Source of the DNA: Candidatus Hydrothermarchaeum profundi
GTDB lineage: Archaea; Hydrothermarchaeota; Hydrothermarchaeia; Hydrothermarchaeales; Hydrothermarchaeaceae
NCBI GenBank assembly: GCA_002011125.2
Contig: MTMF02000009.1
Coordinates: 192,001-256,000, forward strand
Direction of reading: 5' to 3'
DNA length: 64,000 bases
Under the pieces are notes generated by a model, which saw nothing but the letters and a program-made list of their open reading frames with translations, did not search any database and had not been told where the DNA came from. A program made the position numbers and the translations under genes. Below, piece after piece: positions 30,378 to 47,063 of this stretch. Position 1 is the stretch's first letter. Every line of letters starts with the position of its first letter.

Positions 30378-30479
30378 CTCGGTTGTGCAATTTACATCAG
30401 AACCTGTTTATTATAAAAAACTATAAATATATACGGTAACTGCTTCCATAATAAAATACTATTATTTGGAGGCGAAGAA

Positions 30480-30821
30480 ATGGGAAGATTGTATGTTGAT
30501 GAAAAGGTAACGCCATATGTTGAAGAGATCACTGACGCTGATATAAAAGAATGGGAGAAAAAAGAAAAAGATGGAAGAATAGTAGATGATGTTGCAGGCG
30601 GTACAGATGTAAGTATACCCATCAGAGTAGACTACGCAAAGGATTTCCATAAAGCATGGGACCTGCTCCAGAAAAATAAGATTCCCCTTAAATACAAAAC
30701 GGTTATGACAGTTCCTCCTTTCCATGCAACAATACACGTTTTCCCAACTCATGGCGTAAAAGCGATGAAACTCTTGAGAAAAGCCGGAATAAAGATGTAT
30801 AAAGCAAAGCCTGTATTTTAA
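30480..30821 (+). CDS. Hypothetical protein
   Basis: 113 aa, GGAGG RBS, T-rich terminator-like sequence downstream. Confidence 0.7.
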   Translation: MGRLYVDEKVTPYVEEITDADIKEWEKKEKDGRIVDDVAGGTDVSIPIRVDYAKDFHKAWDLLQKNKIPLKYKTVMTVPPFHATIHVFPTHGVKAMKLLRKAGIKMYKAKPVF

Positions 30822-30859
30822 AAATTCCTTTATTTTTTTATCTGAGAGGTGAATTTAGA

Positions 30860-31387
30860 GTGGGGTGTATCCATAGAGATATCGATGACTGTAAGCTAAC
30901 CAACAGCCCATGTTTTGGTCTAGTTTACAGCGAGCAAGATGAAGAATATGTCATAGACCCCTGGAAAGAGAGTATGTGCAATTCTTTTATCAGCGACGGC
31001 AAGAATGCAGAGATTTCAACTAAAGATGAGTGGAATATTAAGGAAGGAGAAAAATTCAGTGTATTAATTAGAATTTTTGGTAGCAAAGAAGACTCTCCCA
31101 GTTATTGCAATAATGAAATCTGTATTCCAGGAGAATATCGAACCCCAGAAGAAGATGCTGAAATATTGGAGTCCCTCCTGAATAGGAGATATTCTGGTGG
31201 GATAAAAGTAGAAGGATTCAGCTTAAACTCTCCGAGGATGAGCGAATTCCCTGAAATAAGAAAGCTGATTGAGGAGGGAATGGAGCCTCCAATCACTATG
31301 GTAAATGGTGAGATAAAGTTTATTGGAGACATACAGCTGAACCTACTTAAATTAGAAATAGAAAAGTTAGGTTTAAAACCCCGGTAA
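30860..31387 (+). CDS. Hypothetical protein, Cys-rich N-terminus plus thioredoxin-like C-terminal domain
   Basis: GAGGTGA RBS; four N-terminal Cys; C-terminal PITMVNGEIKFIG typical of thioredoxin-fold proteins. Confidence 0.6.
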   Translation: MGCIHRDIDDCKLTNSPCFGLVYSEQDEEYVIDPWKESMCNSFISDGKNAEISTKDEWNIKEGEKFSVLIRIFGSKEDSPSYCNNEICIPGEYRTPEEDAEILESLLNRRYSGGIKVEGFSLNSPRMSEFPEIRKLIEEGMEPPITMVNGEIKFIGDIQLNLLKLEIEKLGLKPR

Positions 31388-31542
31388 TTTTGTATAGAGG
31401 ATATCATTAATTTGGAGGGATGGTATCCGTAGCTTTTTTGCACTATCTTTTTTATCTACATATAATTGATAGAAAACTGAAAATCCCTCTCTAATAAATA
31501 GAAAATCTCCTTAAAAGTTTAAGTCTCCCGAATAGTTAAAAT

Positions 31543-33804
31543 TTAAAACCTCTCTATTACTTTTTCAAATTCATCTAACCAGTTTAATAATCCCTGTAAA
31601 GTTCTCCTCCCTCCTAAATAAGGATAAATTTTTTCTATATATGTGATCGTTTTCCTTCTAATCTCTTCTGTTTTTTGTAAAGCTAACTCGGAGTTCTTAG
31701 CCCTTTCAGCTTCTACTAGCTCCTGCTTCGTTAGTGATAAATATTCATTGATTTCTAAATTGAGCTTACCTGCCGCTTCCCTAAGATTTTTCATTATTCG
31801 ACTACATCTCTCATGTACAGATTCCTTTTCTAAGGCAGATTCCCTAAAAATCTCCCTTATCCTACTTCTCATTTCAAGAGAGCCGTCTTCCATGACTGTT
31901 TTTAGAAATGTCTCTGGAGAAACCTTGCCACTGAGAATTAGCATCTCAATATCAGAGAGATCACTGCACACTATATTGCCCTCTTTTGCTAGCTTGCTAA
32001 CCAAGTTGGGGCAATTCCTTTTCCCCTCTTTCTTCATCTCTCCTATAAACTCTAATGCAGTGCCTATTGGAGTCACCAAGTGCTCTACGGCGATTTCTAA
32101 TGCTTGACATAGGTCGTCTATATGTTCCCAAGTTTCATTAAGAAGCTCTGGGGGCATTCCCCTGCGTCGCCCTATTTTAGCTTGTATTCCTAAAAAGTTT
32201 GCGAGAGCCATACTTTTTAATCTGAAAATGTATGGGATTTCTAAATACTCTACTCTCGCTTTATTACCGTCCCTTATAACTCTCAAAGGTACTAGAGTTT
32301 TATTGTACTCGTCGCTATTTATTAATGCAGAATTAGGATATGCCATCAGGACATCGCTAAAACTAAAAATAGGCAATACAGGATAATTGATAGACCCCTT
32401 GATGATATCAGAAACTAATAATAGCTCCTCTGAAACTTCAGATAGCGCATTTTTAGCCTTTGGTCTAGTAGTAATAATAAAAACACCGGGAATTATCCCC
32501 TCCCGTAGACACATCGAAATAATCTCTTTAGATTTTTTAATATAGTTCAGCTCGCAGCCATCAGAGGTTTTCTTAAAATATTTAATTTTTGATAGAACAA
32601 AACTTTCAACGCCTATCTGCAGTTTCCTGAAGTTTGCTTCCTTAAATTTCTTTAACAATGCATAATCGATGCTTTCCACTCTAACCATGGCGCCAAAAAT
32701 AAGTTTATCGCTTAATCCATGCAATCTTATCTTATCCAACAAGTTCTCTACCCATCTTCGATTCTGGACAAAGTGATCATCCTCGAAGGTAATCCTTGTT
32801 AAACCATTTTCAGCTGCCTTCTCTATTACATTAAGGACCTTGCCTACAGGATATCTCCTACCGGGTAGATTGCTAACACTGCAGTAAGAGCATTTTCCCC
32901 AGTTGCATCCTCTTTGCACATAAAGGCTTAAACCATCCCATTTTCTTTTTTTTATTTCGTCCCATGGGAAATCCAATGGGAGGTCTTCCATCTCACTTCT
33001 TGAAGGATATGTATATAAATTCCGAGAAAATTCTTTATATCCTATTGGAAACTCCTCTTTATTTTCTTCCTCCCACGCTCTCTTGGATTCCTCATAAGCC
33101 TCCTCCGAATCTACTTTCAAAATATGCTTTCCATTCCTTGAATTAACGATTACACCACTAAGAGGAAACGAAATCTCTATGCCTTTAATTTTTCTTTTTA
33201 TATGGATATTTTTAAGACAATCTGCCTGCTTCTCAGTTATAGGACTCTTATACTGCGCAGAGCTTATAAGTTCTATTAACTCTTCGCCTAGAAAATCCAC
33301 GTCTTTTCTAGCAAATTTCAAGCTCTCTTCCAAAGGCACTTTAAGTTCTTCATTTTCCGGGGCTCTTTTTAGATATTCAAGGATAAGGGGAAAAACTAAG
33401 TCTCCTTCCCCTTCTACCACGACATCAATTCCTACCGCATTCGATAAGGGTATGGCATTATCTTCGACGCCATGTCCTCCAACGACAACAACTACTCGGG
33501 GATCAACCTCCTTAACCTTTATTACTGTTATAAGGTTCTCTTTAAGTTCTATAGAGCTTAATATCGAGACAGCAACTACATCGTAGTTTCTACTCGCTAC
33601 CTTTTCTAATAACTCCTCCTTATCTATAGAAAAATCAACCTCATGGCCTACATTTTTCAATAGTTGGACAAACTGCAGGATCGTTGGAGCTTCATCCCGG
33701 TTATACTTACTATAATCGAGATAGAAAGCTATCTTTTTTGGAGAGGTCGTTTTTAGCATTTTAACTAGTATCTCACCTACAACTAAAAAACTATTTGTAT
33801 TCAT
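31543..33804 (-). CDS. Cobalamin-binding (class B) radical SAM protein
   Basis: VVVGGHG, GEGD B12-domain motifs; QRGCNWGKCSYC; FEDDHF; IGVES. Confidence 0.88.
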   Translation of the reverse strand: MNTNSFLVVGEILVKMLKTTSPKKIAFYLDYSKYNRDEAPTILQFVQLLKNVGHEVDFSIDKEELLEKVASRNYDVVAVSILSSIELKENLITVIKVKEVDPRVVVVVGGHGVEDNAIPLSNAVGIDVVVEGEGDLVFPLILEYLKRAPENEELKVPLEESLKFARKDVDFLGEELIELISSAQYKSPITEKQADCLKNIHIKRKIKGIEISFPLSGVIVNSRNGKHILKVDSEEAYEESKRAWEEENKEEFPIGYKEFSRNLYTYPSRSEMEDLPLDFPWDEIKKRKWDGLSLYVQRGCNWGKCSYCSVSNLPGRRYPVGKVLNVIEKAAENGLTRITFEDDHFVQNRRWVENLLDKIRLHGLSDKLIFGAMVRVESIDYALLKKFKEANFRKLQIGVESFVLSKIKYFKKTSDGCELNYIKKSKEIISMCLREGIIPGVFIITTRPKAKNALSEVSEELLLVSDIIKGSINYPVLPIFSFSDVLMAYPNSALINSDEYNKTLVPLRVIRDGNKARVEYLEIPYIFRLKSMALANFLGIQAKIGRRRGMPPELLNETWEHIDDLCQALEIAVEHLVTPIGTALEFIGEMKKEGKRNCPNLVSKLAKEGNIVCSDLSDIEMLILSGKVSPETFLKTVMEDGSLEMRSRIREIFRESALEKESVHERCSRIMKNLREAAGKLNLEINEYLSLTKQELVEAERAKNSELALQKTEEIRRKTITYIEKIYPYLGGRRTLQGLLNWLDEFEKVIERF

Positions 33805-33817
33805 CTAATATTTTTTC

Positions 33818-34432
33818 ATGGACTTTGAAAAACTAAAGGAAGAGGTTGCTAAAAAAATGAATGCGCCTGGCCATGATTTCCTACATGTTGTAAGAGTTTA
33901 TAATCTTGCAAAAAAGATTGGAAGGAATGAGAACTGCGATATGGACATTCTACTAGCTGCTTCTCTACTGCATGACATAGGCAGAGGAGAAGGTGTAGAG
34001 CATTCTAAAAAATCTGTCGAAATCGCTGGAGAGATATTGAGAAAGATCGACTTTCCTGAAGAAAAAATAAGAGACGTACTGTACGCAATTAGCCTGCATA
34101 GATATCGGGATGGGATTACTCCTCATACGCTGGAGGGAAAGATTCTACAAGATGCAGATAGATTGGATGCTATAGGGGCTATTGGGATTATAAGATGTTT
34201 CACTTATGGTGGGGCCCATGGTAGGATGGACTACCATCCAGAGGATCCATTCTTTGAGACGCCTAGGAGACTTGAAGGCGACCGGTATTCGTTAGACCAT
34301 TTCTACGATAAATTATTCAAGCTTAAAAATACTCTACATACAGAAATGGCCCGCAAAATAGCAGAAGGTAGGTATGAGTTTATGCGGGAATTTCTCAGAA
34401 GATTGAAAGACGAGATAGACAGCCAAAGCTAA
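33818..34432 (+). CDS. HD-domain phosphohydrolase
   Basis: HDFLHVVRV, LLHDIG, QDADRLDAIGAIG. Confidence 0.92.
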   Translation: MDFEKLKEEVAKKMNAPGHDFLHVVRVYNLAKKIGRNENCDMDILLAASLLHDIGRGEGVEHSKKSVEIAGEILRKIDFPEEKIRDVLYAISLHRYRDGITPHTLEGKILQDADRLDAIGAIGIIRCFTYGGAHGRMDYHPEDPFFETPRRLEGDRYSLDHFYDKLFKLKNTLHTEMARKIAEGRYEFMREFLRRLKDEIDSQS

Positions 34433-35349
34433 ATTGTACTTCGTTGCCTTATTTGTTTACTAAGTTTTGCTGCCTCACTAAGGATCTCCATTATTTCTTC
34501 ATCAGAAATGCCTCTCCTTATTGGTCCTAAGAGATCGAACACGTATCTATCATCGTCGATCATAAAAAATCTCAATTTGCCATCAGCCGTTATACGTAGC
34601 AGTTTACATCTGAGACCACTGCATTCATCTGGATCTTGGACTGCCTTACAAGTAACGATTTGAGAATTACCTACATGGTATACCATTCTATCATATTTAG
34701 ATCGCCTGACCTCAAGACTGTCAGCTCTTTTTTCTAGATATTTTTCAAGCTCACTTATCGGATAATAGTTGTCTCCATAGAACTCTTTGTTTTCCCTTGT
34801 TTCTATAAGCTCGATGAACTGTATATTGCAACCAACATCATTGGCAAAGACTATAATATCATCGATCTCATCTAAATTCTTTTCTTTCAACACCAAAGTG
34901 TTTATCTCAACGGGTATTCCTATAGATACAGCCTTCTTAATTCCCTCTAATACCTCTTCCAAGGTATCCTGTCCACCTATAGAGGCGTAGACTTCCTTCC
35001 TAAGAGTATCAAGGCTTACATTTATCCTATCCAAATAAATATCAGGATTCTCCTCAAGGAATTTCTTTAAAAAAACACCATTCGTTGTAATTGACAGTAC
35101 CGAGATTTTTTTTAATTCTGAAAGTTTCCTCAATATCTCGGCTATATCCTTTCTTAAGAGAGGCTCTCCCCCTGTGATCTTTATTTTTCTTACGCCAATT
35201 CCAGTAGCTATATTGGCAATCCTTGCAATCTCATCGGGAGTAAACCTCTCACGACTAACCGTCTCCCGGTACCCCTCCTTATGGCAATAAATGCATTTTA
35301 GATTACAATCGGGGGTAACTGATATTCTTAAGCTTCCTATCAAGTTCAT
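34429..35349 (-). CDS. moaA: MoaA-like radical SAM protein (GTP 3',8-cyclase family) with atypical C-terminal Cys motif
   Basis: LRISVTPDCNLKCIYCHKEG, ITGGEPLLR, INVSLDTL, LRITADGKL. Confidence 0.75.
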   Translation of the reverse strand: MNLIGSLRISVTPDCNLKCIYCHKEGYRETVSRERFTPDEIARIANIATGIGVRKIKITGGEPLLRKDIAEILRKLSELKKISVLSITTNGVFLKKFLEENPDIYLDRINVSLDTLRKEVYASIGGQDTLEEVLEGIKKAVSIGIPVEINTLVLKEKNLDEIDDIIVFANDVGCNIQFIELIETRENKEFYGDNYYPISELEKYLEKRADSLEVRRSKYDRMVYHVGNSQIVTCKAVQDPDECSGLRCKLLRITADGKLRFFMIDDDRYVFDLLGPIRRGISDEEIMEILSEAAKLSKQIRQRSTI

Positions 35350-35357
35350 ATCTCGAA

Positions 35358-36452
35358 TTAAAACGTTTTTGGACTGGAAGGGAGATAAGGATAATCCTCC
35401 TTAATCATTTCCTCCTCCCTGACCAGATGGAAATTTTCCTTCAACATATTTTTTTCAGGAACACTCATGCAAAGCTTGGATATGCTACTGTAGTCTAATT
35501 GCTCTGCAGCTTTAATCATCGCTTCAACCTGAGTATAATCGTGCTCAATTATGGTTTTGGTAATCAAACCCAGGCCTCTATAAAAGTCCATGGCTACAAT
35601 TCCCTCTCTGTATTCCCTCTTTATGTCTTCATCGAAATTGTACTTATCTGCAATTTTTGATTTAAGCTCCTCGTTTACCAGGTCATCACAAAAATAGGGG
35701 ACCCACTGTGCCATATGCTTAGTGATATGTTCCCTCTGTAGCTTTAAATACTGAAGGGCCAGTTCTTTGTCTCCCCTCTTCCATGCCTTAAGCTCGTCGT
35801 CACACAGCCTAAACATAAATTCTATCTCGATTTTTATATCGTCAGGAGGATCATTTCCAAATCTCAGGGCAACATTATAAGATGCCATCCTGTAGAGGTC
35901 TTTAACTTCCTGGGTGGAATCCCCCATTGTCTGCTTTTCACTAAGATAAATGCTTTCATAACAGCAAACCCACGGCATTAGTCCATCGTAGAACACCATT
36001 AAATACTCTCCAGAGAGATCATCGGCTAGCTTTTTGACTTTTGCGCCTCTAAACCTCTCAACAAACTTAGAGATGAGATTTAGTCCTTCCTCTACCCGAC
36101 TATCATTATAAATGCTGCATGCATCTCTTATTTTCTCAGAAAAGGTTCCACTCAGTATATCCTTTACAAGCTCTAAAGAGGGATCAGTAAAGCTCCTGAA
36201 TAATTGAAAATATATTTCCCTCCTTTTTTTTAAAAGCTTTACATATTCTTCCGGAGAATTCGGAATTTGTGGAACATGAGAAAAGTTAGGTTCCCTTCCC
36301 CGAATCAAATCATGCCATTCATCTTCATCGCTTACCAACATTGACTTAACCCAAAAAAGATAGCCATGTTTTTTATTCAATTTTTCCCATTTTTTACGCA
36401 GATCTGGATCTAACCAAGCTTTCACTTTTACTGTGCTTCTATCCTTTTTCAT
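35358..36452 (-). CDS. TorD/DmsD-family maturation chaperone, extended
   Basis: YESIYL...PDDIKIEIEFM...HMAQWVPYFC...FYRGLG pattern; position in Mo/W enzyme operon. Confidence 0.8.
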   Translation of the reverse strand: MKKDRSTVKVKAWLDPDLRKKWEKLNKKHGYLFWVKSMLVSDEDEWHDLIRGREPNFSHVPQIPNSPEEYVKLLKKRREIYFQLFRSFTDPSLELVKDILSGTFSEKIRDACSIYNDSRVEEGLNLISKFVERFRGAKVKKLADDLSGEYLMVFYDGLMPWVCCYESIYLSEKQTMGDSTQEVKDLYRMASYNVALRFGNDPPDDIKIEIEFMFRLCDDELKAWKRGDKELALQYLKLQREHITKHMAQWVPYFCDDLVNEELKSKIADKYNFDEDIKREYREGIVAMDFYRGLGLITKTIIEHDYTQVEAMIKAAEQLDYSSISKLCMSVPEKNMLKENFHLVREEEMIKEDYPYLPSSPKTF

Positions 36453-36482
36453 CTCAAATCCTCCAAAAGAAAATCATTATAT

Positions 36483-36629
36483 TTAAAACCGTGGTTTCCG
36501 TGGACCATGAGTCACAGGTTTAACCAATTTGTTAATACTTCTCCTGCCGCACTCAGGGCACCCGTAGGTTTCCCACTCTTCTTTAACAAATCTGGTGCCA
36601 CATCCACTACAACTATACCAGACAGACAC
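36483..36629 (-). CDS. Zinc-ribbon microprotein (48 aa)
   Basis: Not in ORF track. GTG start after GGAGGTGA; MSVWYSCSGCGTRFVKEEWETYGCPECGRRSINKLVKPVTHGPRKPRF. Confidence 0.75.
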   Translation of the reverse strand: MSVWYSCSGCGTRFVKEEWETYGCPECGRRSINKLVKPVTHGPRKPRF

Positions 36630-36635
36630 CCACGC

Positions 36636-37475
36636 TCACCTCCTAACCTTTTTAACCCGGCTTAAGGCAGGCCTCCATCCCTTTTCCAATATAGGCACAG
36701 GGAAATCTTTAGGAATAGCGTAGAACACGTGGCCTATTCTCTCGATAATTCTCACCTTAGCCATCTCGCCAATATAGTTTTTCAAGTCTTCAAAGCGTCC
36801 AAATACCATACAACTCGTAGCACATTTCGTGGAACAAGCCGACCACATGCCATTATATTCAATTCTGGTGATAGGTTTCCTTTCTGCGAGTTTCTTTCCA
36901 GACAGTGGATTACCCTCCTCATCTACCAAGCGTCCTTTTTTGTCCCTTTTTATTCTGCCAATTTCATCATAAACTACGCTGTGAAGTTTGCCACCCCCCT
37001 CCAGAACATACCTGTAAATGTGTTTAATTTCCTCCTCGGTATAAGTCTTAGTGTAATCGACCCTTCTCATGCAAAAATCGCACTTAAAGACCCTCCCATA
37101 TCTACTATCCCATTGCATAGCCCCAAAGGGGCATGCCTGCATACAACGCTTACATCCTATACAAGCAGGGGTATCCACATATACGATCCCATCTTTGGTT
37201 CTTCTCTTAACTGCATTCGTAGGACATGCTTCGAGACAAGGAGCAGGGTCACAGTGATAACAAAGCATTGGAATATAAAGCGTCTTAATCCTACCGTTAG
37301 ATCTCACAGGTCCTACTTGCATCACCCGAATCCATCTTGGTCCCATGGGTATATCATTCTCAAGCTTACAGTGTACCTCGCAACTAAAACAGCCTATGCA
37401 TTTTTTTAAATCAATAAACATTACAATGTCATTTGATGAAAGTTCTTTTTGGGGGGCCTCTGCCATTAATTCCAT
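36636..37475 (-). CDS. 4Fe-4S ferredoxin subunit (DmsB/TtrB-like) no. 2, with large insertion
   Basis: CIGCFSCEVHC, CYHCDPAPCLEACP, CIGCKRCMQACP, CDFC...(long insert)...ACSTKCAT. Confidence 0.9.
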   Translation of the reverse strand: MELMAEAPQKELSSNDIVMFIDLKKCIGCFSCEVHCKLENDIPMGPRWIRVMQVGPVRSNGRIKTLYIPMLCYHCDPAPCLEACPTNAVKRRTKDGIVYVDTPACIGCKRCMQACPFGAMQWDSRYGRVFKCDFCMRRVDYTKTYTEEEIKHIYRYVLEGGGKLHSVVYDEIGRIKRDKKGRLVDEEGNPLSGKKLAERKPITRIEYNGMWSACSTKCATSCMVFGRFEDLKNYIGEMAKVRIIERIGHVFYAIPKDFPVPILEKGWRPALSRVKKVRR

Positions 37476-37477
37476 TT

Positions 37478-37753
37478 TTATTTCTCCTTTACCTTAGGTT
37501 TCAATTTTTCATATGGAATGATCTCACGTTTTTCCGGATATGCCCATGAAGGGCTGATAAGAGTATTTTCTTCATCTCTTGCAAAGAAAGCACTTCCAAG
37601 TCTCCAAGCATTTTCCTCTCTTATAACCGTAGTTGCATATTTCCATTGTTTTCCCGGCTTCAAAATTATTTTCTGTAATTCCCTCTGTACCATGCCCATT
37701 ACTTCAATTTTAGTACCGGGTATAAACCTAGAGGAAGATTTTTTTCTAGGCAT
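37478..37753 (-). CDS. Small basic protein homologous to the C-terminal tail of ferredoxin subunit no. 1
   Basis: IREENAWRLGSAFF...NTLISPSWAYPEKREIIP aligns with FREWTARKLASVFL...DTLVCPAWAFPEKNFFIP. Confidence 0.75.
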   Translation of the reverse strand: MPRKKSSSRFIPGTKIEVMGMVQRELQKIILKPGKQWKYATTVIREENAWRLGSAFFARDEENTLISPSWAYPEKREIIPYEKLKPKVKEK

Positions 37754-37825
37754 TTAGACTCACATCAAACTTAAAATAAAAAATAAATAGGAAGAAGAGT
37801 TTCTTCCCATTTTCAGTTAAGCAAC

Positions 37826-38623
37826 CTATTTTTTAGCCTCGACCTTAAGCTTCACTGCAGGTGTGATTTTTGTTACCTTCTCAACTAAAGCTCCAGGTTT
37901 CCTCCTTATCCTTGGGATAAAGAAATTCTTCTCAGGAAACGCCCACGCTGGACAAACAAGCGTATCATTTCCCATGCCGCCTAGAAACACTGAGGCCAGC
38001 TTTCTCGCCGTCCATTCCCTAAAGTACGTCATGATATCATCAGGGTTACCAACATAGATACAGTGCGTAGCACATTTCGTAGCGCATGCCGGCTGCAAAC
38101 CACGATCTATTCTGTCTATGCAATAGTCGCATTTTATAACCTTATTAGTCCTGCTATCCCACTGCATAGCCCCAAAGGGGCATGCCTGCATACAACGCTT
38201 ACATCCAATGCATTTCTCACTATCCACGTACACTATACCATCCTTAGCTCTTTTAATAAGAGCTCCAGTAGGGCAGGATTCCACACAAGCTGCATGACCG
38301 CACATGAAGCAATTCATTGGATAATAGATTGTCTTAAGATGTCTTCCTACTCTCTTAGGTCCTATCTGCATTACACGCATCCTTCTAGGACCCATTGGAT
38401 CATCGTGTTCAAGTTTACAGTGCGTTTCACAACTGAAGCACCCTATACATCTCCTTAGATCTACGAAAAATGTTATATGATCCGGGATTATACCCCATCT
38501 ATCCGCAGCTTGCACGTTCCAATAGTTCATCGCCTCCTTTCTCTCATTGGCATACCTGCCATTTTCAGGAGCCAGGTTCAACAGCTTATCTTTCAGTGTT
38601 AGTCTTTCAGACTGATTGCTCAT
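37826..38623 (-). CDS. 4Fe-4S ferredoxin subunit (DmsB/TtrB-like) no. 1
   Basis: Four Cys clusters; start moved to MSNQSE (GGAGG RBS 8 nt upstream). Confidence 0.9.
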   Translation of the reverse strand: MSNQSERLTLKDKLLNLAPENGRYANERKEAMNYWNVQAADRWGIIPDHITFFVDLRRCIGCFSCETHCKLEHDDPMGPRRMRVMQIGPKRVGRHLKTIYYPMNCFMCGHAACVESCPTGALIKRAKDGIVYVDSEKCIGCKRCMQACPFGAMQWDSRTNKVIKCDYCIDRIDRGLQPACATKCATHCIYVGNPDDIMTYFREWTARKLASVFLGGMGNDTLVCPAWAFPEKNFFIPRIRRKPGALVEKVTKITPAVKLKVEAKK

Positions 38624-38636
38624 TTTCATCGCCTCC

Positions 38637-41087
38637 TCACTTCGTCTCCCATTTCTCTCTTGGTACGCCCTTATAATATATCGCGGAGCCCTTCTCTGCA
38701 AACCTCATATAATGTCCTATAGTAACCGTGTCATCCTTGTCAGGGGATATATAATGTTCTGGACCTTTGCCTATGCTTTTCAAGAACTCCTTTACTTTCT
38801 CAACAGCATCATCCGGATCTTGGTCAGGGCGGTAAACTCTCACTAGATTGCATTTGTATTGCACTTGAGTATAAAATGGGTCTTTAATTGTGTCGTCTAT
38901 CAGTTCGTTAACGTTTTGATACGGATAAAACGGCTGATATTTGTCAAATCCCTCAGGCATCCAACAAGATGCCTCATCTACCATCTCATTGACCCATGCA
39001 ACAGCGTATACTTTGCCATGGTCATTTTCAGCGATAACTAAATCACCGTCCTTTATCCCCAGCGTCTTCGCTGTGGAAGTATTGATGTTTATTATCATAT
39101 GAGTCTCTAGTTCTGATGTCCACGGCCACCAATGCCCCATTTCATGGAAGTGGGCGACGAGTCTTCCAGTTGTCAAATTTAGTGGATATCTCTCCCATAC
39201 GTCTGGCCTTGACACTGGGGTGCAGCTCGCTTCAATGTGCATTGGAAGCGGATTGAAGCCAAGTTGCTCTAAAGCCTCTGAGTAAAATTCTACTTTACCT
39301 GTAGGAGTTGGGAATCTTTTATCTGTCCCTGGATAGTTTACTCCCTCCTTATACATTATCCACTGAGCGCCTCTGATAGTGGCTTCTGGATCAGAGTACA
39401 TCATGGCCTCGTCCTTTGTCTCTGCCGGCCACATGACTCCTCCCTTCGGGGACTTCTCAGGATCCATACTATCCATCGTAATACCTGCCACAAAGCTCTC
39501 CTGAGAATGGAACCAGTCCTGACAAACACGCTCGTCTATAATTGTCTGCTCTTTATCCTTCCACCAGCTTTTACCATCTGGTGCATAATAGGCCTCGGCG
39601 AACTCAAATCTCTTAGCTAAGCCAGCCCAAAAATCTATATCGGCTCTGCATTCCCAGTTTCTCGGTATAACTTGGTTATGCCACTGGCAATGCCTATTAT
39701 TTCCATGATGCACCACTCCCTCATGCTCTAAGAAGCTTGTTATCGGGAAAGTGGCATGCATCCAGCTTCCAGTCTCATTTGGTGTGAAGGAGATATGCAC
39801 CCCACAATAAAGGTTTTTCATAAACTCCCTTACCTTATTGTTGTTAGGCCATTGGAGTATGTGATTACCATTCCAAATAAGACCTTTTATTGGATATGGC
39901 TTTCCTGTGTATCCGGGATTAATCATGCATGCCGATGCTGTATCCCCCCATGGTATGATTTTATCAGCCAATATGGGCTCCTTTATCTTTTGGATATACG
40001 GCCCTAAGTCTTTACCAGCACTTAACACTGGTCTACAATTATGTAGCCAGTTCCAGCCCCCTCCTTTTACTCCAACATTACCTGTGATAGCCACTAGGAA
40101 CTGATATCCTCTATTAGCTTGGGCTGCAGGATATTGCTGTGCCGTTCCTAAACAGCCTGTGAAGTGAGTCCTGCGTGGATAGGCGATTTTCTCTGCTGCA
40201 AGCCTAATGTCCTCGGCAGGTACCCATGTGATATTTTCTGCTTTCTCAGGCGTATAACCTTTCACGGACTCGGCGAACTTATCGAAGCCCACCGTCCATC
40301 TATCAATAAAATCGTGATCTATCCCATCTATCTCATGTATTAAAACATTCGCCAAAGTTAAAGTGAGATAAGAGTCCGTTGATGGTCTAATTCTTAACGC
40401 TAGATCCGCTTTTGCCATCGAGGCATTAAACCGTGGGTCAACACAAATGTAAAATGCTCCATTCTTATCTTGCGCCTCAAGATACCATTTTTCTGTAATT
40501 ATCTCCAACGCAGCAGCATTAGACCCTGCCTGAAATATTGTATCACTGTTCATAGCATCTTGACAGGGGTTCATGAGCCTTAGAAACTCTTTAGCTCCAA
40601 AAACATACTGACCAATAGCCCCAGGACTCTCGCAACAAAGGGGGCCCTGACCATATACATTCGGTGTACCGTACATTGCAAGAAACCTTGCTCCTCCTAG
40701 CTTATTTCCATAACTGCTTCTACCTGTTCTATGGCATCCAACAGTGTGTGCTCCCCATTTTTCTCTAATATATTTCAGTCTGTCTGCTACAAAATCCAGC
40801 GCTTCATCCCATGTTGCCCTTTTGAATTTTCCATTTACATTGTCCTCCCTAATCGCAGGATATTTATATCGAAGAGGGTTATAGGCATGCTGTATTTGAG
40901 CAGATCCCTTACAACAAAGTGAACCGTAATTTTGTGGATGTTCTTCATCCCCCCAAATGTCAACTATACGATTATCTTTAATGAAAATTTTCATGCCACA
41001 GCCGCTTTCACACATGTTATCGCAAGTCGTGTAACGGATAGTATCATAGTCTCTTATAGATTCCTGCGCCTGTTTTAAAAAAACCAC
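38637..41087 (-). CDS. Mo/W-bisPGD (DMSO reductase superfamily) oxidoreductase catalytic subunit, cytoplasmic
   Basis: CDNMCESGC...LCCKG FS0 motif, TWDEALD, FPTPTGKVEF, LTTGR..HFH C-terminal domain; no Tat leader; GTG start after GGAGGTGA. Confidence 0.9.
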   Translation of the reverse strand: MVFLKQAQESIRDYDTIRYTTCDNMCESGCGMKIFIKDNRIVDIWGDEEHPQNYGSLCCKGSAQIQHAYNPLRYKYPAIREDNVNGKFKRATWDEALDFVADRLKYIREKWGAHTVGCHRTGRSSYGNKLGGARFLAMYGTPNVYGQGPLCCESPGAIGQYVFGAKEFLRLMNPCQDAMNSDTIFQAGSNAAALEIITEKWYLEAQDKNGAFYICVDPRFNASMAKADLALRIRPSTDSYLTLTLANVLIHEIDGIDHDFIDRWTVGFDKFAESVKGYTPEKAENITWVPAEDIRLAAEKIAYPRRTHFTGCLGTAQQYPAAQANRGYQFLVAITGNVGVKGGGWNWLHNCRPVLSAGKDLGPYIQKIKEPILADKIIPWGDTASACMINPGYTGKPYPIKGLIWNGNHILQWPNNNKVREFMKNLYCGVHISFTPNETGSWMHATFPITSFLEHEGVVHHGNNRHCQWHNQVIPRNWECRADIDFWAGLAKRFEFAEAYYAPDGKSWWKDKEQTIIDERVCQDWFHSQESFVAGITMDSMDPEKSPKGGVMWPAETKDEAMMYSDPEATIRGAQWIMYKEGVNYPGTDKRFPTPTGKVEFYSEALEQLGFNPLPMHIEASCTPVSRPDVWERYPLNLTTGRLVAHFHEMGHWWPWTSELETHMIININTSTAKTLGIKDGDLVIAENDHGKVYAVAWVNEMVDEASCWMPEGFDKYQPFYPYQNVNELIDDTIKDPFYTQVQYKCNLVRVYRPDQDPDDAVEKVKEFLKSIGKGPEHYISPDKDDTVTIGHYMRFAEKGSAIYYKGVPREKWETK

Positions 41088-41266
41088 GTTTTCACCTCCA
41101 AGTAGGTATAGATGCACCAGAACTTACAGTGCGATATAGGAAAGAGTAGAAATAATTGTATAAATAACTTTACTCAAATATGGATTTGCTCACATAAATG
41201 CACAACTGTCGATAGATTATTCGAAAAAATAGATAGAGTATAAGTAAGATTAAAATTAAAAAAGAG

Positions 41267-41887
41267 GTGGGAAGAACATTGCAAATTTCATGCATAATAG
41301 TTGCTGGCGGAAAAAGTAGTAGGATGGGTTACGACAAAAAGTTTATTGAGCTTAATGGGTCTATCTTTCTAGAGTATGCTATTAGGGCAGCCGAGAAGAT
41401 AGCAGATGAGATAATAATTGTGGTAGGTTCTAACACACAAAAAGATGAAACCCGTAGGTTTACTCATCTTAAGATTGCAGTTGATAAAGAGCTTAATAGA
41501 GGCCCAGTAATGGGTATCCTCACAGGACTGGAAAACTGTAGCCACAATTACGCTGCTGTAATGCCGGTAGATACTCCCCTTATCAACCCTGAGATCTATA
41601 AGTACATGATTTCGTTGTCCCATAGCTTTGATGCGGTTATCCCTAAAGATGGTGAACATATAGAACCGATGCATGCGATTTATCATGTAAAAACAATGAC
41701 TACTGCCTGTAAAAAAGCGTTGAAAAAGGGGGAAGAATCTGCCTATTTAACCGTGAAATATCTTAAGAAAGTTATGTTCGTTCCGGTAGAAGAACTAAGA
41801 AAATTTGACGAAAATTTAATGACTTTCCGCAGCGTTAATACACCGGAGGATGTAAAGAAGCTTAAAGAAATGTTAAAAGGACGTTAA
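41267..41887 (+). CDS. mobA: Molybdenum cofactor guanylyltransferase
   Basis: AGGKSSRMGYDK, GPVMGI, EPMHAIY, VNTPED. Confidence 0.93.
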   Translation: MGRTLQISCIIVAGGKSSRMGYDKKFIELNGSIFLEYAIRAAEKIADEIIIVVGSNTQKDETRRFTHLKIAVDKELNRGPVMGILTGLENCSHNYAAVMPVDTPLINPEIYKYMISLSHSFDAVIPKDGEHIEPMHAIYHVKTMTTACKKALKKGEESAYLTVKYLKKVMFVPVEELRKFDENLMTFRSVNTPEDVKKLKEMLKGR

Positions 41888-41888
41888 A

Positions 41889-43130
41889 ATGGATGTTAGA
41901 ACCAGAGGTTTTTATAGGAGAACTCCTGTAGATGAAGCCCTAAATATCCTGCTCAAAAGAGTTTCCCCTATAGGGCAAGAATTTATCGATATAAGCGTAG
42001 CGGTAGGCAGAGTATTGGGGGAAGACTTAACCGCTAAGGAAGATATACCTCCATTCGATAGAGCTGCAATGGATGGATATGCAGTTAAGGGCGAGAATAC
42101 TTTTGGTGCTTCACAGACGAATCCCATTTATTTTAAGGTAATAGGAGAAGCCAGTATTGGAAAGCTCTCTAAACTAGAAGTTAGAGAATTTGAAGCGGTG
42201 CGGATAATGACGGGCTCTCCTATGCCTAAAGGAGCTAATGCTGTTGTTATGTTCGAGCATACAAACGAGTTAGACGGGGAAATTGAAGTACTAAAGCCAG
42301 TGCCTCCGGGTAAAAATGTATCTCGCAAAGGAGAGGATGTAAAAAAAGGTGGAACTCTACTTAAGAAAGGCAGAGTACTTAAACCTCAAGATGTGGGAAT
42401 GTTAGCTGCTCTAGGGATGAACCAGGTAAAAGTTCAAAAGAAACCGAGCGTATCCATCATATCTAGTGGAGACGAGCTTACTCCGCCTGGGGAGACGCTT
42501 CAAGAGGGAAAGATATACGATATTAACAGTTACTCCCTAGCATCATATGTGAAGAAGTTAGGCGGAATACCATATATTTTCGGAATTGTGAGAGATAAAG
42601 AAAAAGATATCTCTAATGCTATATTGAAGTCACTGCAACACGATATGATTATAATCAGCGGATCTACTTCGGTGGGTAAGAGAGATATAGTGCCAAAAAT
42701 TGTTTCAGAGATGGGTAAGATACTAGTTCACGGTGTAGCTATTCGCCCAGGTGAACCTACAGGGTTTGGTATTATATCGGATAAAATAGTTTTTATGCTC
42801 CCCGGCTATCCCGTCGCAGCTATAGTTGGATTTGAAACATTTGTTAGACCTGCTCTGCAAAAGATGCAAGGAACTGAGCTTAAAAGCCCTTACCCTAAGA
42901 TAAAAGCATATCTAAGCCGGAAGATATCATCAGAACTGGGGAGAAGAGACTTTGCAAGAGTCCGCATATGGAAAGAAGGAGATAAACTTATAGCAGAACC
43001 TGTTAGGACAAAAGGGTCAGGCATAATCTCAAGTTTGGTAAAAGCGGATGGGTTCATTATCGTGCCTGAGAATACAGAAGGATTGGAGAAAGGAACAGAA
43101 ATAGAGGTGAACTTGTTCGATAGGTATTGA
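41889..43130 (+). CDS. moeA: Molybdopterin molybdo/tungstotransferase
   Basis: PPFDRAAMDGYA, IMTGSPMP, SGDEL, LPGYP. Confidence 0.95.
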   Translation: MDVRTRGFYRRTPVDEALNILLKRVSPIGQEFIDISVAVGRVLGEDLTAKEDIPPFDRAAMDGYAVKGENTFGASQTNPIYFKVIGEASIGKLSKLEVREFEAVRIMTGSPMPKGANAVVMFEHTNELDGEIEVLKPVPPGKNVSRKGEDVKKGGTLLKKGRVLKPQDVGMLAALGMNQVKVQKKPSVSIISSGDELTPPGETLQEGKIYDINSYSLASYVKKLGGIPYIFGIVRDKEKDISNAILKSLQHDMIIISGSTSVGKRDIVPKIVSEMGKILVHGVAIRPGEPTGFGIISDKIVFMLPGYPVAAIVGFETFVRPALQKMQGTELKSPYPKIKAYLSRKISSELGRRDFARVRIWKEGDKLIAEPVRTKGSGIISSLVKADGFIIVPENTEGLEKGTEIEVNLFDRY

Positions 43131-43208
43131 ATTTCTTACCACAATTTTTTCTAAAGTTAAGCGTCGTTAAGTTTTGCGCAAAATATAAAATCAGAAAGGA
43201 GTGTTAAA

Positions 43209-43427
43209 ATGAAAGAACAAGTAGCTGAGGTTATTAGGCGCATAAGGCCAAACTTGCAGGCAGATGGTGGCGACATCGAATTAATAGATGTAAAGGATGG
43301 CGTCGTGAAAGTTAAGCTGACTGGAGCTTGTGGTAGCTGCCCAATGTCTCAGTTGACATTGAAACTGGGAGTAGAGGCAGCTATTAAAGAAAACGTGCCT
43401 GGAGTTGAAAGAGTAGAAACCGTTTAA
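43209..43427 (+). CDS. nfu: NifU/Nfu-domain Fe-S carrier
   Basis: [23 protein letters not shown]. Confidence 0.93.
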
Positions 43428-44707
43428 GTATACTTCTTTAGAGATTTATCCAGAGAGCTTATAGCACATTCAACCTGCTCTTTAGTAATTACAAGGGGAG
43501 GTTGGAATCTGAGAGTGCAGTTGTAGTAGCCTCCTTTACCTATCAAAATTCCGTCTTCCCTCATTTTATTCTTAACCTTATCAGCAAGATCAACTAAAGG
43601 CTTTTTTGTATGTTGCTCCGCTAGCTCAACGCCTATCATCAGCCCTTTACCTCTCACATCACCAACAACAGGATATTTTTCCTTCAGTTCTAGTAGTTCA
43701 TTTTTAAAAAACTCACCGATTTTTTTGGAATTTTCTATTAACCCGTCTTCCTTAAGTGCTTTTATGTTACCGAGAGCAGCAGCGCAAGAAACCGGATTTC
43801 CACCAAATGTCGACAGATGGTCTCCTGACTCAAAGGCATCTGCAATTTCCTCCTTCGCTATAAAGGCGCCTAAGGGTAAACCTCCAGCGATACCTTTTGC
43901 GAGGGGCATTATATCAGGCTTTAGATCCCATATTTCAGATGCAAACATCCTGCCACATCTACCAAAGCCTGTTTGAACTTCATCCACTATAAAAAGAGAA
44001 TCATTCTCTTTGAGAATCTCGTGAATAATCCTAAAGTACTCTCCATCCGGGGGGTGGATTATCCCTCCTTCTCCTAAAACTGGTTCAATAAACATTCCAG
44101 CAACATCTCCGCTTGAAGTTGTGCCGATTATTCTCTCCAAGGACCTAGCACACTCTAGATCGCATTCAGGATATTCTAACCGATATTTACACCTAAAACA
44201 ATAAGGAGCATCGGCATAGGTTACCCCAGTTAAAAAGGGACCCATTTTATTCTTATATTTTTTCTGTCCTGTTAGAGTTAACGCACCAAAGGTCCTCCCA
44301 TGAAAGGAATACGTCAAAGAAATGAACTCCTTTTTCCCAGTATATTTCCTAGCAAGTTTCATTGCTCCTTCAACTGCCTCTGCTCCGCTGTTGGAGAAAA
44401 ATGATTTTTTTAGTCCCTCTGGAGTGATCTCTGCAAGTTTCTCTGCCAGTTCTCCAACAGTCTGCAGGTAATACACATAGGAGCAACAGTGGAGATGTTT
44501 CTCTAGCTGTTTCTTAATTGCCTCAATTACATGAGGATTCCGATGGCCAACATTAATCACGGATAATCCAGAAAAACAGTCAATATAAGTCCTCCCCTCA
44601 GTATCTTTTATAGTAGCCCCTTCGGCAGACTCTACTACAAAGGGATCCATTCCCTTAGATATAGGCATTATAAACTCTTCATACTGCTTTATGGTCTCCA
44701 TATCCAT
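43424..44707 (-). CDS. Class III PLP aminotransferase (GABA/omega-amine transaminase type)
   Basis: [37 protein letters not shown]; start moved to MDMET. Confidence 0.92.
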
Positions 44708-44712
44708 CACCC

Positions 44713-45123
44713 TTAAGAAGTCTGTAATATAAGCGCGCCAGGATAACACCAAGATACACACTTAGGCTCTCCATTACAGACATCACATTTCATTGCCTTG
44801 TTAGCATCTTCATCCATATATATACCATTAAAGGGACATGCTGTAACACATGCGCGGCATCCAGTACACTTCTCTACATCTAACAGGGTTCTTCCTGTTT
44901 CTTCGTCTTTATAGAGAGCATCATATTTACATGCTATAATGCATGGAGGATTCTTGCACTGCCTACAGACTGCTGGAACACTTTCTGCATATTTGCTATC
45001 AACATTCACCTTAATCAATGCTTTTTCTGGCCAAAAAACTTCTCTCTTCTCCATCGAACAAGCAAGTTGACACAGCTTACAGCCAGTACACTTCTCTTTT
45101 ATGATTTTAACAAACATCCTCAA
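44713..45123 (-). CDS. 4Fe-4S ferredoxin subunit associated with AOR
   Basis: CTGCKLCQLAC, CRQC...C...C, CTGCRACVTACP, CDVC...CVSWC. Confidence 0.9.
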   Translation of the reverse strand: MRMFVKIIKEKCTGCKLCQLACSMEKREVFWPEKALIKVNVDSKYAESVPAVCRQCKNPPCIIACKYDALYKDEETGRTLLDVEKCTGCRACVTACPFNGIYMDEDANKAMKCDVCNGEPKCVSWCYPGALILQTS

Positions 45124-47063
45124 AGTCGCTCCACCTCCTCGGCGAGGTCTTCCATACCTAGCTCTATGAGCTTTTCTTTTTTCGGTATTCCATTTTCATC
45201 CCACTGCCTGAGTTCGTAATATTCCTCCAGCATCTTCTTGAAGTCCTTATACTTTATTTGAACTCCTTTAGTAGGTCCATCCTGAATCGGCTCATTGAAG
45301 ATCCGCCATGGAAGGGCTTCGTCATCTTTTCTCCTTAGTCCCTCACGAACATTGAATAATCGAGTCATGTTTATTATTCTCTCGCTTGTCCTCTCAAGCT
45401 CTCTCCTATCTCTAATATCGTCCCAACCTGTAGCTCTTGCTACTAAATCAGCAATCGGATCAGAAATTGGAGGTAACGCAAAATCACACATTATAGAAGA
45501 AAACTTTAGACCATAATGATGCTGTTGCCTATAAACGATGTATGCCTTACCCTCAGGATTCCATCTTTCAGTCTCAATTGGAATATTCTTCTCACCTTTT
45601 TCTGGGTCAGCATCCAACCAAAATGTACCCCATACTTCCACCCCTATAGGCCATGATCTGAGGTGGCATCCCCCCCTATCGGCTGTTGCATAGGCCAAAG
45701 GCATACTTATAGCAGCCCTAGGTTCATATGCTGGGAGCTCTAGTCCTTTCACTTGCATGGCAAATCTTTCAGAGCCTTTTCCAATCTTCTCAGACGCTCG
45801 TTTTACCCCCTCTGCCAACAGATCTCCTATACCTTCCCTTCTAGCAATCTTATTTACCATTGTGATCATTGCCTCTGAGTCCCCCCATCTCAACTCCACT
45901 CCGTCAAGGTCCTCCTTCGAAAGTATTCCTTTTTCGTAACACTCCATAGCCCAAGCTAATGTATTCCCAGTTGAAATTACGTCCATTCCCATCCTATCGC
46001 ACAGGAGATTTAACGCAACTACTGCCGGTAAGTCTGAAAGATTGCAGTTTGATCCTAACAATGCTAGGGTCTCATACTCCGGGCCTTCGACCATTGAGCC
46101 AGCATACGGGCCTTCCTCTACCTTGAGAAAATTGCTACACGCCATTGGACATTGAATGCAAGCCCTATTTCTGACTCTAAGTTTTTTAACAGCCTCTGGC
46201 CCCAGTTTCTCACCCATCTCTTTAAAAAATCCTGACTGGAAATTTTTGGTTGGAAGTGCCCCCACCTCATTCGTCCAACCAGATAACTCCGGAGTTCCTG
46301 CCTGATCTTTCCAGCTTATAGCAAAAAGTGAGTCTGGTTGCTCTATTAGATGCCGAGTTGTAGTCTCTTTTGCTGCTTCAACAAATCCTTCAGGATCTGC
46401 AACTTCAACCCTGCCTGTTCCCTTTACCGCTACTGCTTTTAAATTCTTTGAGCCAAAAACAGCTCCAGCTCCACCACGGCCGTGCTGCCGATAATACTCA
46501 TGATTAACCAGGGCATATCTGACAAGGTTTTCACCAGCTGGACCTATAGTTAGAACTGAGATATCTTTCCCGTATTTCTCCTTTAAGGCATCCTCTGTTT
46601 CGTGAGTATCTTTCCCCCATAAAGACTCTGCGTCTTCTATTTTTACTTTTTCATCTTTTATCCAAACATAACTGGGGTTCTCCGCTTTTCCTTCAACTAT
46701 TAACGCATCATATCCTGCGTATTTGAGTTCTGCTCCAAAATATCCTCCAGCAAAACTATCCAAGAAAATACCGGTAAGAGGAGACTTAGTTACTAGCGCA
46801 TACTTACCGCATGCTGGTGCAATTGTTCCTGTGAGAGGCCCGGTTACTATTATAGCTTTATTTTCCGGTGAAAGAGGATCGGTCCCTTTAGGTATCTCAT
46901 GGTAAAGCATTCTAGCGCCAAGCCCCATCCCTCCCACGTATTTACGTGCCCATTCAAGGTTTAAGGGTTCATCTACAGCTTCTTTGGTAGTCAAGTTTAC
47001 CCTTAATACCTTGCCCTTATATCCTCTAACAGATGTCATGATATAGTTTTTAACTAAAACCAA
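45120..47063 (-). CDS. aor: Tungsten aldehyde:ferredoxin oxidoreductase family protein
   Basis: KSPLTG, IGPAGE, GRGGAGAVFGSKNLKA, CIQCPMAC, EYET, D..GMD, RGGCH. Start may be Met at 47039. Confidence 0.93.
   Translation of the reverse strand: MVLVKNYIMTSVRGYKGKVLRVNLTTKEAVDEPLNLEWARKYVGGMGLGARMLYHEIPKGTDPLSPENKAIIVTGPLTGTIAPACGKYALVTKSPLTGIFLDSFAGGYFGAELKYAGYDALIVEGKAENPSYVWIKDEKVKIEDAESLWGKDTHETEDALKEKYGKDISVLTIGPAGENLVRYALVNHEYYRQHGRGGAGAVFGSKNLKAVAVKGTGRVEVADPEGFVEAAKETTTRHLIEQPDSLFAISWKDQAGTPELSGWTNEVGALPTKNFQSGFFKEMGEKLGPEAVKKLRVRNRACIQCPMACSNFLKVEEGPYAGSMVEGPEYETLALLGSNCNLSDLPAVVALNLLCDRMGMDVISTGNTLAWAMECYEKGILSKEDLDGVELRWGDSEAMITMVNKIARREGIGDLLAEGVKRASEKIGKGSERFAMQVKGLELPAYEPRAAISMPLAYATADRGGCHLRSWPIGVEVWGTFWLDADPEKGEKNIPIETERWNPEGKAYIVYRQQHHYGLKFSSIMCDFALPPISDPIADLVARATGWDDIRDRRELERTSERIINMTRLFNVREGLRRKDDEALPWRIFNEPIQDGPTKGVQIKYKDFKKMLEEYYELRQWDENGIPKKEKLIELGMEDLAEEVERL

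Follow-up and report, generated by a model that had tools for sequence, protein, structure and literature searches.

A 64,000-nucleotide stretch of the Candidatus (Ca.) Hydrothermarchaeum profundi genome (contig MTMF02000009.1, positions 192,001 to 256,000; hereafter the window) carries an operon for a soluble oxidoreductase of the MopB, or dimethyl sulfoxide reductase, superfamily. Inspection of the open reading frames (ORFs) in the window located seven tightly packed genes on the minus strand and a divergent mobA-moeA pair. An earlier reading of the letters made without database searches (the sequence-only reading) had described this same arrangement; every gene was found where it had been placed, and Pfam bore out the labels:

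38637..41087, minus strand: alpha, the catalytic subunit, 816 amino acids (aa) (Pfam Molybdopterin, Fe4S4 and Molydop_binding)
37826..38629, minus strand: beta1, 267 aa, with four [4Fe-4S] motifs (Pfam Fer4_11)
37478..37753, minus strand: p91, a 91-aa small protein homologous to beta1 in its C-terminal half
36636..37475, minus strand: beta2, 279 aa, with four [4Fe-4S] motifs, a paralogue of beta1 (Pfam Fer4_11)
36483..36629, minus strand: probable gene for a 48-aa CxxC/CxxC zinc ribbon (Pfam matches weak, none above cut-off)
35358..36452, minus strand: TorD/DmsD-family chaperone with an extended N terminus (Pfam Nitrate_red_del, PF02613)
34429..35349, minus strand: variant MoaA-like radical S-adenosylmethionine (SAM) protein (Pfam Radical_SAM and Mob_synth_C)
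41267..41887, plus strand: MobA guanylyltransferase, divergent from the alpha operon (Pfam)
41889..43130, plus strand: MoeA, one of three genomic copies (Pfam)

Neither alpha nor beta1 begins at the start of its longest ORF: alpha initiates at GTG 41087, downstream of a GGAGG site, and beta1 at ATG 38629. The highest 19-residue hydropathy value across the nine encoded proteins is 1.57, and thus no membrane anchor is encoded. None of these proteins has a membrane helix or a Tat motif. No Tat motif was found in any of the 73 family alpha ORFs with an intact FS0 cluster motif, so that the enzyme is neither exported nor anchored, as the sequence-only reading had proposed. Contigs from a sequencing run of another study cover most of 29000-43500 at near-100% identity, in pieces; among the matches listed, the zinc-ribbon region (36361-36672) is uncovered. 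A scan for promoters and terminators was uninformative, giving fewer matches than shuffled sequences (17 vs 25.4; 3 vs 6.7), and no RNA dataset was among the runs listed in a sequencing-run search for the locus.

Alpha is a member of the MopB superfamily, scoring above cut-off with PF00384, PF04879 and PF01568, and reaches the cut-off of no NCBIfam model. Its best score is with formate dehydrogenase (FDH) alpha (TIGR01591, 254 bits against a cut-off of 666), followed by PhsA (NF012032, 189 against 694) and DmsA (184 against 778), and its best sequence match in the Protein Data Bank (PDB) is FdhF. No cut-off was reached, among the families shown, when 63 family members and nearest neighbours were scanned. 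A protein search returned 29 clusters at 45-100% identity to alpha and then a cliff to 33% or less, and in a profile search of 1.84 billion representatives the family was a single 50% cluster. The best matches in a plasmid collection had 27-28% identity; none of the top 40 of 246 records belongs to the family.

The phylogenetic position of alpha was determined in a 74-row tree, which contains no MolyA, TtrA, ArrA or true acetylene hydratase (AH) sequence, leaves out the mis-called row L161 and includes a row labelled Ttr_L160 that is a type II enzyme. The family, an archaeal paralogue and a set of ligand-less derivatives form one clade (100/100), to which four uncharacterised proteins are sister (96/90); the next sister is the FDH/Nap/Nas group (100/97), the nearest characterised branch. 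PhsA groups apart from these, together with Psr-like, Arx-like and SoeA-like proteins (100/99). An AlphaFold2 model of alpha (predicted local distance difference test score, pLDDT, 81) matches FDH, Nap and AH about equally (best Z 40.3, root-mean-square deviation 2.4, 658 aligned, 20-26% identity). Alpha represents an unnamed, uncharacterised family outside every characterised family tested, and we regard this family as a new family-level variant within the known MopB superfamily. Its own branch beside FDH/Nap, outside the characterised clades tested, and the NCBIfam scores both uphold the earlier proposal of an uncharacterised enzyme.

A pattern scan of species genomes recovered 77 family loci. 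Seventeen are in Hydrothermarchaeota-type archaea, two in one Altiarchaeales-labelled assembly, and the remainder in Nitrospirota, Thermoleophilia, Chloroflexota, Bacillota (including Sulfobacillus), Acidulodesulfobacterium-type genomes and Rhodobacteraceae; gene order and identity served to group 25 bacterial records that bear no phylum label. Among 401 Nitrospirota genomes, a profile search recovered exactly the nine carriers of the pattern scan, which is therefore close to complete in that phylum. The alpha gene lies in two or three pieces in L015 (G051:C80), L034 and L075, by assembly error or decay (G and L numbers label the other genomes and loci compared, and G000 is the Ca. H. profundi genome). 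The two copies in the Altiarchaeales-labelled assembly (L018, L029) come with a gene set of the bacterial type and have HdrA-NuoEF as a neighbour; a search of that assembly, whose binning may be mixed, found no dsrA, aprA or sHdrB1.

The archaeal sister paralogue (L108:11125-13554 in G055; L097 in G054; 41% identity) has no Tat signal, carries a GPLCGE motif and is accompanied by a beta of its own; the variant MoaA, two MoeA and a pair resembling FwdB/FwdD are encoded close by. A further set of proteins that branch with the family (P0121, P0123-P0127, P0136, P0137, P0155, P0170, P0196, P0202, P0232, P0247 and P0030) is without the ligand Cys and the conserved Arg/His set described below. The full-length members of this set retain FS0; judging from these motifs, the derivatives are probably pseudo-enzyme subunits.

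The FS0 motif of alpha is C22-x3-C26-x3-C30-x27-C58. The C-x3-C-x3-C spacing to which the sequence-only reading had drawn attention holds family-wide, but the extra Cys of the accompanying LCCK is not conserved (CCK in 13, CSK in 31 and CPK in 28 of 72). Glu27, directly after the second FS0 Cys, is invariant in 72 of 72 ORFs and sits at the position of AH Asp13, which is reported to hydrogen-bond the tungsten-bound water and to tolerate replacement by Glu (PMC12096430). The double Cys noted in GPLCCES was likewise borne out in part: the first (Cys151) is invariant in 76 of 76 ORFs, but the second (C152) is Cys in 72 and Thr in four, and is Gly in the archaeal paralogue. Cys151 aligns in register with the selenocysteine (Sec) of FdhF, the Cys of NapA and AH Cys141, and is the likely metal ligand; pairwise HMMER alignments put C152 at the ligand position instead, so that the choice between the two cysteines is inferred.

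Eight residues, R120, R123, H349, R352, H460, H461, R465 and H652, are invariant among 26 aligned sequences, and E153 and the H349-N-C351-R352 stretch are also conserved (C351 in 75 of 75). This Arg/His set may form an oxyanion pocket. The Sec/Cys-His pair and active-site Arg of formate dehydrogenases were not found, the His that follows the ligand being replaced by Cys or Thr and the Arg position being occupied by His349. Genes for the molybdate transporter MOT1 occur in 12 of the 77 family loci, a hint that the metal may be molybdenum.

In a tree of the iron-sulfur subunits, beta1, beta2 and the single beta of the bacterial operons are one family, distinct from the CooF-like ferredoxin that the bacterial operons also encode. 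Within this family beta2 is monophyletic (100/99), has an insert of ~68 residues, and is without the C-terminal helix present in the other betas shown; beta1 carries this helix and an archaeal tail. The beta1 and beta2 genes share a 95-nucleotide repeat with 82% identity, and beta2 is present in 13 of 13 archaeal loci. By these sequence relationships beta2 is a lineage-specific duplicate of beta1; its equation with the second ferredoxin of the bacterial operons was rejected by the beta tree.

The homologous half of p91 corresponds to beta1 residues 198-245, which comprise the helix and tail. A p91 hidden Markov model matches 15 archaeal beta1 tails (E 1e-6 to 1e-9), and an hhalign comparison of p91 with the beta1 tail gave 96% (E 3.9e-9). 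The synteny comparison suggested with the sequence-only reading placed the p91 gene between the two betas in all 13 archaeal loci long enough to show it. Complex prediction for p91 and beta2 was weak (0.55 vs 0.27 for the best control), with a partner pLDDT of 49 or more and 46% or more of the contacts common to the runs; at 0.60 or below, the mark was reached by only 18 of 157 solved complexes and by both mismatches that passed, and the halves of split genes may pass through likeness to solved structures. Together, the homology and the model suggest that p91 probably completes beta2 in trans. An ESM Atlas search with p91 returned nothing usable (best 0.80). A bacterial 81-aa protein was rejected as the counterpart of p91; the two are separate families, both of which occur in the Ca. 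H. profundi genome.

Of the two microproteins originally described, the 91-aa protein is thus a conserved part of the enzyme, but the 48-aa zinc ribbon is not. The zinc-ribbon ORF has a strong Shine-Dalgarno site and an ambiguous codon score (0.053 vs 0.028 in the shifted frame, with 0.13-0.17 for the other operon genes). No homologue was found in any family locus compared, tblastn matched only the ORF itself, and in 10 of 10 other comparable loci the beta2-torD gap is 6-78 nucleotides, without a zinc ribbon. It is probably a gene unique to the Ca. H. profundi genome.

The maturation genes are in part specific to this family. The torD gene follows beta2 in 10 of the 11 archaeal loci that reach that far, and the N-terminal extension of its product, with a YLFWV-type motif, is common to the archaeal and bacterial copies of the family. 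In the MoaA-like protein the third Cys of the canonical auxiliary-cluster motif (C-x2-C-x13-C) is gone and a C-x7-C-x4/5-C set is present instead; the protein passes NF001199 (263.7 vs 231) and fails TIGR02668 and TIGR02666. This variant is present in 6 of 38 genomes of the phylum, all of which carry the family or its sister paralogue, adjoins torD in G083 also, and occurs in the aligned Acidulodesulfobacterium-type loci; in the two Bacillota copies aligned the canonical Cys is missing and, of the new set, the first Cys alone is retained. The housekeeping moaA, which is of canonical form and accompanied by moaC/moaB-like genes, lies at C9:799912 of the Ca. H. profundi genome. The proposal of private maturation genes therefore holds for TorD and the MoaA-like protein, which are family-specific variants, but not for mobA, which is the only copy in a genome that encodes three or more further MopB enzymes (one FDH-like with a Tat signal, one NapA-like and one of type II) and must be shared. 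Where archaeal loci include upstream DNA, the divergent mobA-moeA pair is found in 11 of 14. A further user of the local cofactor genes lies at 43424-47063 of the window, where an operon for an aldehyde:ferredoxin oxidoreductase, a ferredoxin and a class III aminotransferase is convergent with moeA-nifU.

Bacterial operons carry a conserved cassette of moeA, variant moaA, a PTPS/QueD-like gene and mobA (L040, L041-L066 and similar). The PTPS-like gene is present in 25 of 29 Acidulodesulfobacterium-type and 3 of 3 Bacillota loci, and was not found in the Ca. H. profundi genome with the queries used. This cassette may point to a modified pterin.

The order of the bacterial operons is alpha, beta, a small protein, then TorD and/or vWA or cofactor genes, a ferredoxin and an FAD/NAD oxidoreductase. 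The last of these is encoded in 41 of 60 non-Hydrothermarchaeota loci and was not found in the Ca. H. profundi genome with the queries used. Immediately upstream, 28 of 29 Acidulodesulfobacterium-type loci and 3 of 3 loci in Bacillota have an HdrB-like CCG gene. Neither a rhodanese or TusA gene nor a membrane anchor subunit was found among the recurring neighbours. Two further genes of the window are associated with the family:

30480..30821, plus strand: small ACT-like protein, outside the range covered by the sequence-only reading (recurrence in family loci and genomes)
31543..33804, minus strand: B12-binding radical SAM protein (co-occurrence with the family in the phylum)

In bacterial operons the small ACT-like gene comes directly after beta, and 51 of 60 non-Hydrothermarchaeota loci have it. 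It is unlinked in archaea, although 17 of 19 carriers in the phylum possess it vs 2 of 19 non-carriers, and it is probably a third core component. The ACT-like fold of its predicted structure is a lead only (Atlas 0.83; Z 7.1, root-mean-square deviation 2.5, 67 aligned), and Foldseek gave no match at E 0.001 or better. The B12 radical SAM gene is present in 18 of 19 carriers vs 1 of 19 non-carriers of the phylum and lies beside sat-like genes in four Nitrospirota loci. As a universal partner it was rejected, close homologues being found in only 7 of 36 other carriers; it is a co-occurring accessory with a putative link to the enzyme. A 175-aa Cys-rich protein with no Pfam match (30860-31387) accompanies these two genes in several archaeal loci. 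At 25694-28894 the window encodes a CbbQ/NorQ-like AAA protein and a vWA partner, a possible maturation factor; vWA homologues lie within the operon in four Nitrospirota loci and nearby in L001 and L006. A universal-stress-like protein and a TauE-type exporter are encoded at 19628-21464, and TauE genes adjoin the operon in L011, L033 and L039.

The family co-occurs with dissimilatory sulfur metabolism. We tested 50 of 78 carriers (G000 and 49 loci), leaving out 23 Acidulodesulfobacterium-type loci, four archaeal loci and one duplicate assembly. Thirty-eight of these 50 genomes have dsrA; of the 12 without it, sHdr is present in five and aprA in one, where dsrOP/sat adjoin the gene, so that Dsr, sHdr or Apr is found in 44. 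In the other six none of these systems was found; most are incomplete, and the sHdr test did not cover G004. The background frequency of dsrA is 5-7% in both lineages sampled: it is present in 15 of 201 Rhodobacteraceae-family genomes (2 of the 15 being carriers) and in 16 of 301 genomes of an Anaerolineae-centred class (4 of the 16 being carriers), compared with 6 of 6 and 5 of 7 carriers, respectively. Within ~12 kb of the alpha gene, in separate lineages, lie aprA-qmo in three Nitrospirota (L020-L022) and dsrAB in two Chloroflexota (L025, L036; dsrAB-dsrMK), and dsrOP/sat/aprA adjoin it in L034.

In L026 the alpha gene directly follows a cluster matching the type II shdrC1B1AHB3-etfAB-emo layout, a system reported to yield cytoplasmic sulfite (PMC11094781). 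The genome that carries it, G022, is a single 10.4-Mb contig with five sat copies, in which no dsrA, aprA or SoeA orthologue was found. Within the phylum, where counts are taken among kin and overstate independence, dissimilatory-type AprA is present in 0 of 19 carriers vs 5 of 10 Dsr-positive non-carriers (two of them partial or split matches), and no sat was found in the near-complete carriers G056 and G084 either. The Ca. H. profundi genome has two dsrAB sets, DsrC, DsrMK and several Hdr genes. Its AprA-like gene is below cut-off, resembles those of Dsr-less relatives, and has sat and small sulfite-reductase-like genes as neighbours. All five Dsr-positive Chloroflexota carriers (G021, G031-G034) have a divergent, low-scoring DsrA (~335-347 bits), which sets them apart from the 12 remaining Dsr genomes in the class sample; this form is also the second dsrAB of Ca. 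H. profundi (C9:127302, beside NorC/NorB-like genes), and G072-G074 are listed with it.

Comparison with known enzymes delimits the family further. FdhF/FdhG and NapA/Nas (PDB 7qv7, 1aa6, 2nap) have the same fold and a Cys at the Sec/Cys ligand position, whereas the family differs in its FS0 spacing and in the replacement of the FDH/Nap His/Met after the ligand by Cys/Thr. SoeABC resembles the family in being cytoplasmic, Cys-ligated and without a Tat signal, in its T-G-R motif and ligand spacing, and in the reaction proposed here; SoeA-like proteins group with Psr/Phs/Arx, however, so that family alpha lies outside the bSreA/SoeA lineage, and Soe uses a membrane anchor and quinone where the family has soluble Fe-S/NAD partners. 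Both can share a genome. PsrA/PhsA are distinguished by the NF012032 cut-off, the Tat signal and their clade. AH (PDB 2e7z) is also soluble and Cys-ligated, with an acidic residue after the second FS0 Cys, but its motif is C-x2-C-D-x2-C rather than C-x3-C-E-x2-C, the AH-like marker P0227 (E 3e-125 to AH) branches apart from the family, and AH is a non-redox monomer whereas the family enzyme has an electron wire. A cluster on plasmid pSCD of Sulfuricella denitrificans, which we take to be Arx-type (it is annotated only as molybdopterin oxidoreductase), likewise surrounds a single alpha gene with two 4Fe-4S genes, TorD and moaA, but has a Tat signal, an NrfD anchor and a Psr/Soe-clade alpha; with a comparable gene count there, the layout alone is not unique. 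A survey of known MopB families also covers unnamed Cys-ligated lineages, not matched to ours, and may include members (PMC10100899). In the portions of the literature searched, including work on Hydrothermarchaeota (PMC6946796), Acidulodesulfobacterales (PMC6776010) and Sulfobacillus (PMC4378227), we found no description of the operon; the supplements may include members.

Because oxidative Dsr, sHdr and reductive Dsr share cytoplasmic sulfite, we place the family at the sulfite node of dissimilatory sulfur metabolism, where it probably acts. Our tentative first choice is that this soluble enzyme, with molybdenum or tungsten (Mo/W) held by a bis(pyranopterin guanine dinucleotide) cofactor, oxidises sulfite to sulfate with a low-potential acceptor, since this reaction accords with the NAD module, with a Glu placed to activate water, with the sHdr case and with the exchange for Apr. 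Electron transfer from sulfite to NAD+ is downhill (-516 to -320 mV). In such an enzyme Cys151 would hold the metal, the Arg/His set would bind the oxyanion, and Glu27 would activate the metal-bound water. Electrons would pass from FS0 to the four clusters of beta1 and on to a second iron-sulfur subunit. In bacteria this part of the wire would be the CooF-like ferredoxin and the FAD/NAD oxidoreductase, with NAD+ as final acceptor; in these archaea the duplicated beta, with beta2 completed by p91, would extend the wire, with ferredoxin or Hdr/Dsr as its probable end. The cofactor would be matured by TorD, MoeA, MobA and the variant MoaA, and the small ACT-like protein may regulate or chaperone.

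Several observations weigh against sulfite oxidation, for which the evidence is gene content and sequence context. The sister group in the tree is FDH/Nap and not known sulfur enzymes, the T-G-R motif of SoeA-like proteins also occurs in unrelated outgroup proteins, and C152 and C351 near the site fit sulfur transfer at least as well. Within the phylum the excess of Dsr in carriers (15 of 19 vs 10 of 19) is modest and drawn from kin that are not independent. The enzyme would be redundant in the 16 of 38 Dsr-positive carriers that have AprA, and also in G043 (Rhodobacteraceae) and G035 (Sulfobacillus), whose SoeA-like proteins are presumably SoeA by their motifs and xsc-like context. Two further carriers are G069 (96% complete), in which no dsrA, aprA, sat or sHdrB1 was found, and G060 (93%), in which no dsrA, aprA or sHdrB1 was found; these genomes and the sHdr carriers led us to reject a strict dependence of the family on Dsr. 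Retention in SoeA- and Apr-bearing genomes would be accounted for by a close rival, possible if doubtful, in which thiosulfate (or trithionate, an S-sulfonate or a persulfide) is interconverted with sulfite and sulfide through a Mo/W=S cycle that feeds Dsr without Sat/Apr. The 22 of 38 Dsr-positive carriers with no AprA match need a sulfite source, which this reaction would supply, and the HdrB-like CCG neighbour, the near-constant C152 and C351, and the sulfido ligand carried by FDH/Nap enzymes are consistent with it. It would have to contend with the potentials, as NADH to thiosulfate (-320 to -402 mV) is uphill unless bifurcated, with the separate Psr/Phs clade of the known thiosulfate reductases, and with the lack of rhodanese or TusA among recurring neighbours.

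The FDH affinities of alpha (its best NCBIfam score, best PDB match and place in the tree) would be explained if the enzyme were an oxidoreductase or hydroxylase of C1, aldehyde or other organic substrates that merely donates electrons to Hdr/Qmo/Dsr. The CooF-like ferredoxin and FAD/NAD layout resembles CO and aldehyde oxidoreductase modules, and G069 has no sulfur system that we could find. We consider this rather unlikely, since the FDH His and Arg are replaced and since one would not expect an enzyme that only donates electrons to occur with oxidative rDsr, sHdr and reductive Dsr alike. The chemistry of sulfite oxidation reversed with ferredoxin would give an ATP-independent sulfate reductase in place of Sat-Apr, in keeping with the distribution complementary to AprA in the phylum and with an archaeal form that has eight extra clusters and in which the NAD module was not found; MopB-family sulfate reductases were reported in Salmonella in 2026 (PMC13524816). 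This is highly improbable for the family: bacterial members are NAD-linked and lie beside intact aprA-qmo, and a donor near -516 mV would be required.

The sequence-only reading had pointed to a similar layout in sulfur-disproportionating bacteria, and its link to sulfur is supported by gene context, but orthology with their MOLY cluster is largely refuted and hardly credible. The two have in common an alpha, an Fe-S subunit, a TorD-type chaperone, the absence of an anchor and the sulfur link. MOLY, however, is reported to have one beta, to be predicted exported, and to be complete only in Desulfobacterota (PMC9676032, PMC12998232), whereas the archaeal form of the family has two betas and p91, the bacterial form has further partners, and the host range is different. 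Compared by motif, the MolyA row in the supplement of the MOLY paper has a Psr-type C-x2-C-x3-C motif, and family alpha lies outside the Psr/Phs clade. Four family motifs gave 0 matches in the seven supplement files, where trimmed columns, line breaks or truncated files could hide a motif. Moreover, molyA is reported in all Thermodesulfovibrionaceae studied, vs 9 family carriers in 401 Nitrospirota genomes.

Many Dsr-bearing archaea and Chloroflexota are without Sat-Apr, and the route by which they supply or dispose of sulfite is at issue. Sulfur disproportionation has been proposed to involve a soluble sulfite oxidoreductase, but in a recently sequenced disproportionator its gene was not identified (PMC9751629). 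With a compact, defined gene set, sharp motifs and a distribution across archaea and at least six bacterial groups, the family described here is a concrete candidate. A more elaborate proposal, which we hold speculative and improbable as a whole, is that this new MopB family is an ATP-independent sulfite/sulfate oxidoreductase that substitutes for Sat-Apr in Hydrothermarchaeota and may use a modified pterin, which the variant MoaA would make, in bacteria together with a PTPS/QueD-like enzyme. Separate structural and cofactor questions attach to the split beta subunit, to the variant MoaA and to the ligand-less derivatives. Elsewhere in the window (47778-49166), a dimethylamine methyltransferase gene, with a corrinoid protein gene divergent from it, is interrupted by an in-frame TAG at 48831-48833, which is consistent with pyrrolysine read-through.

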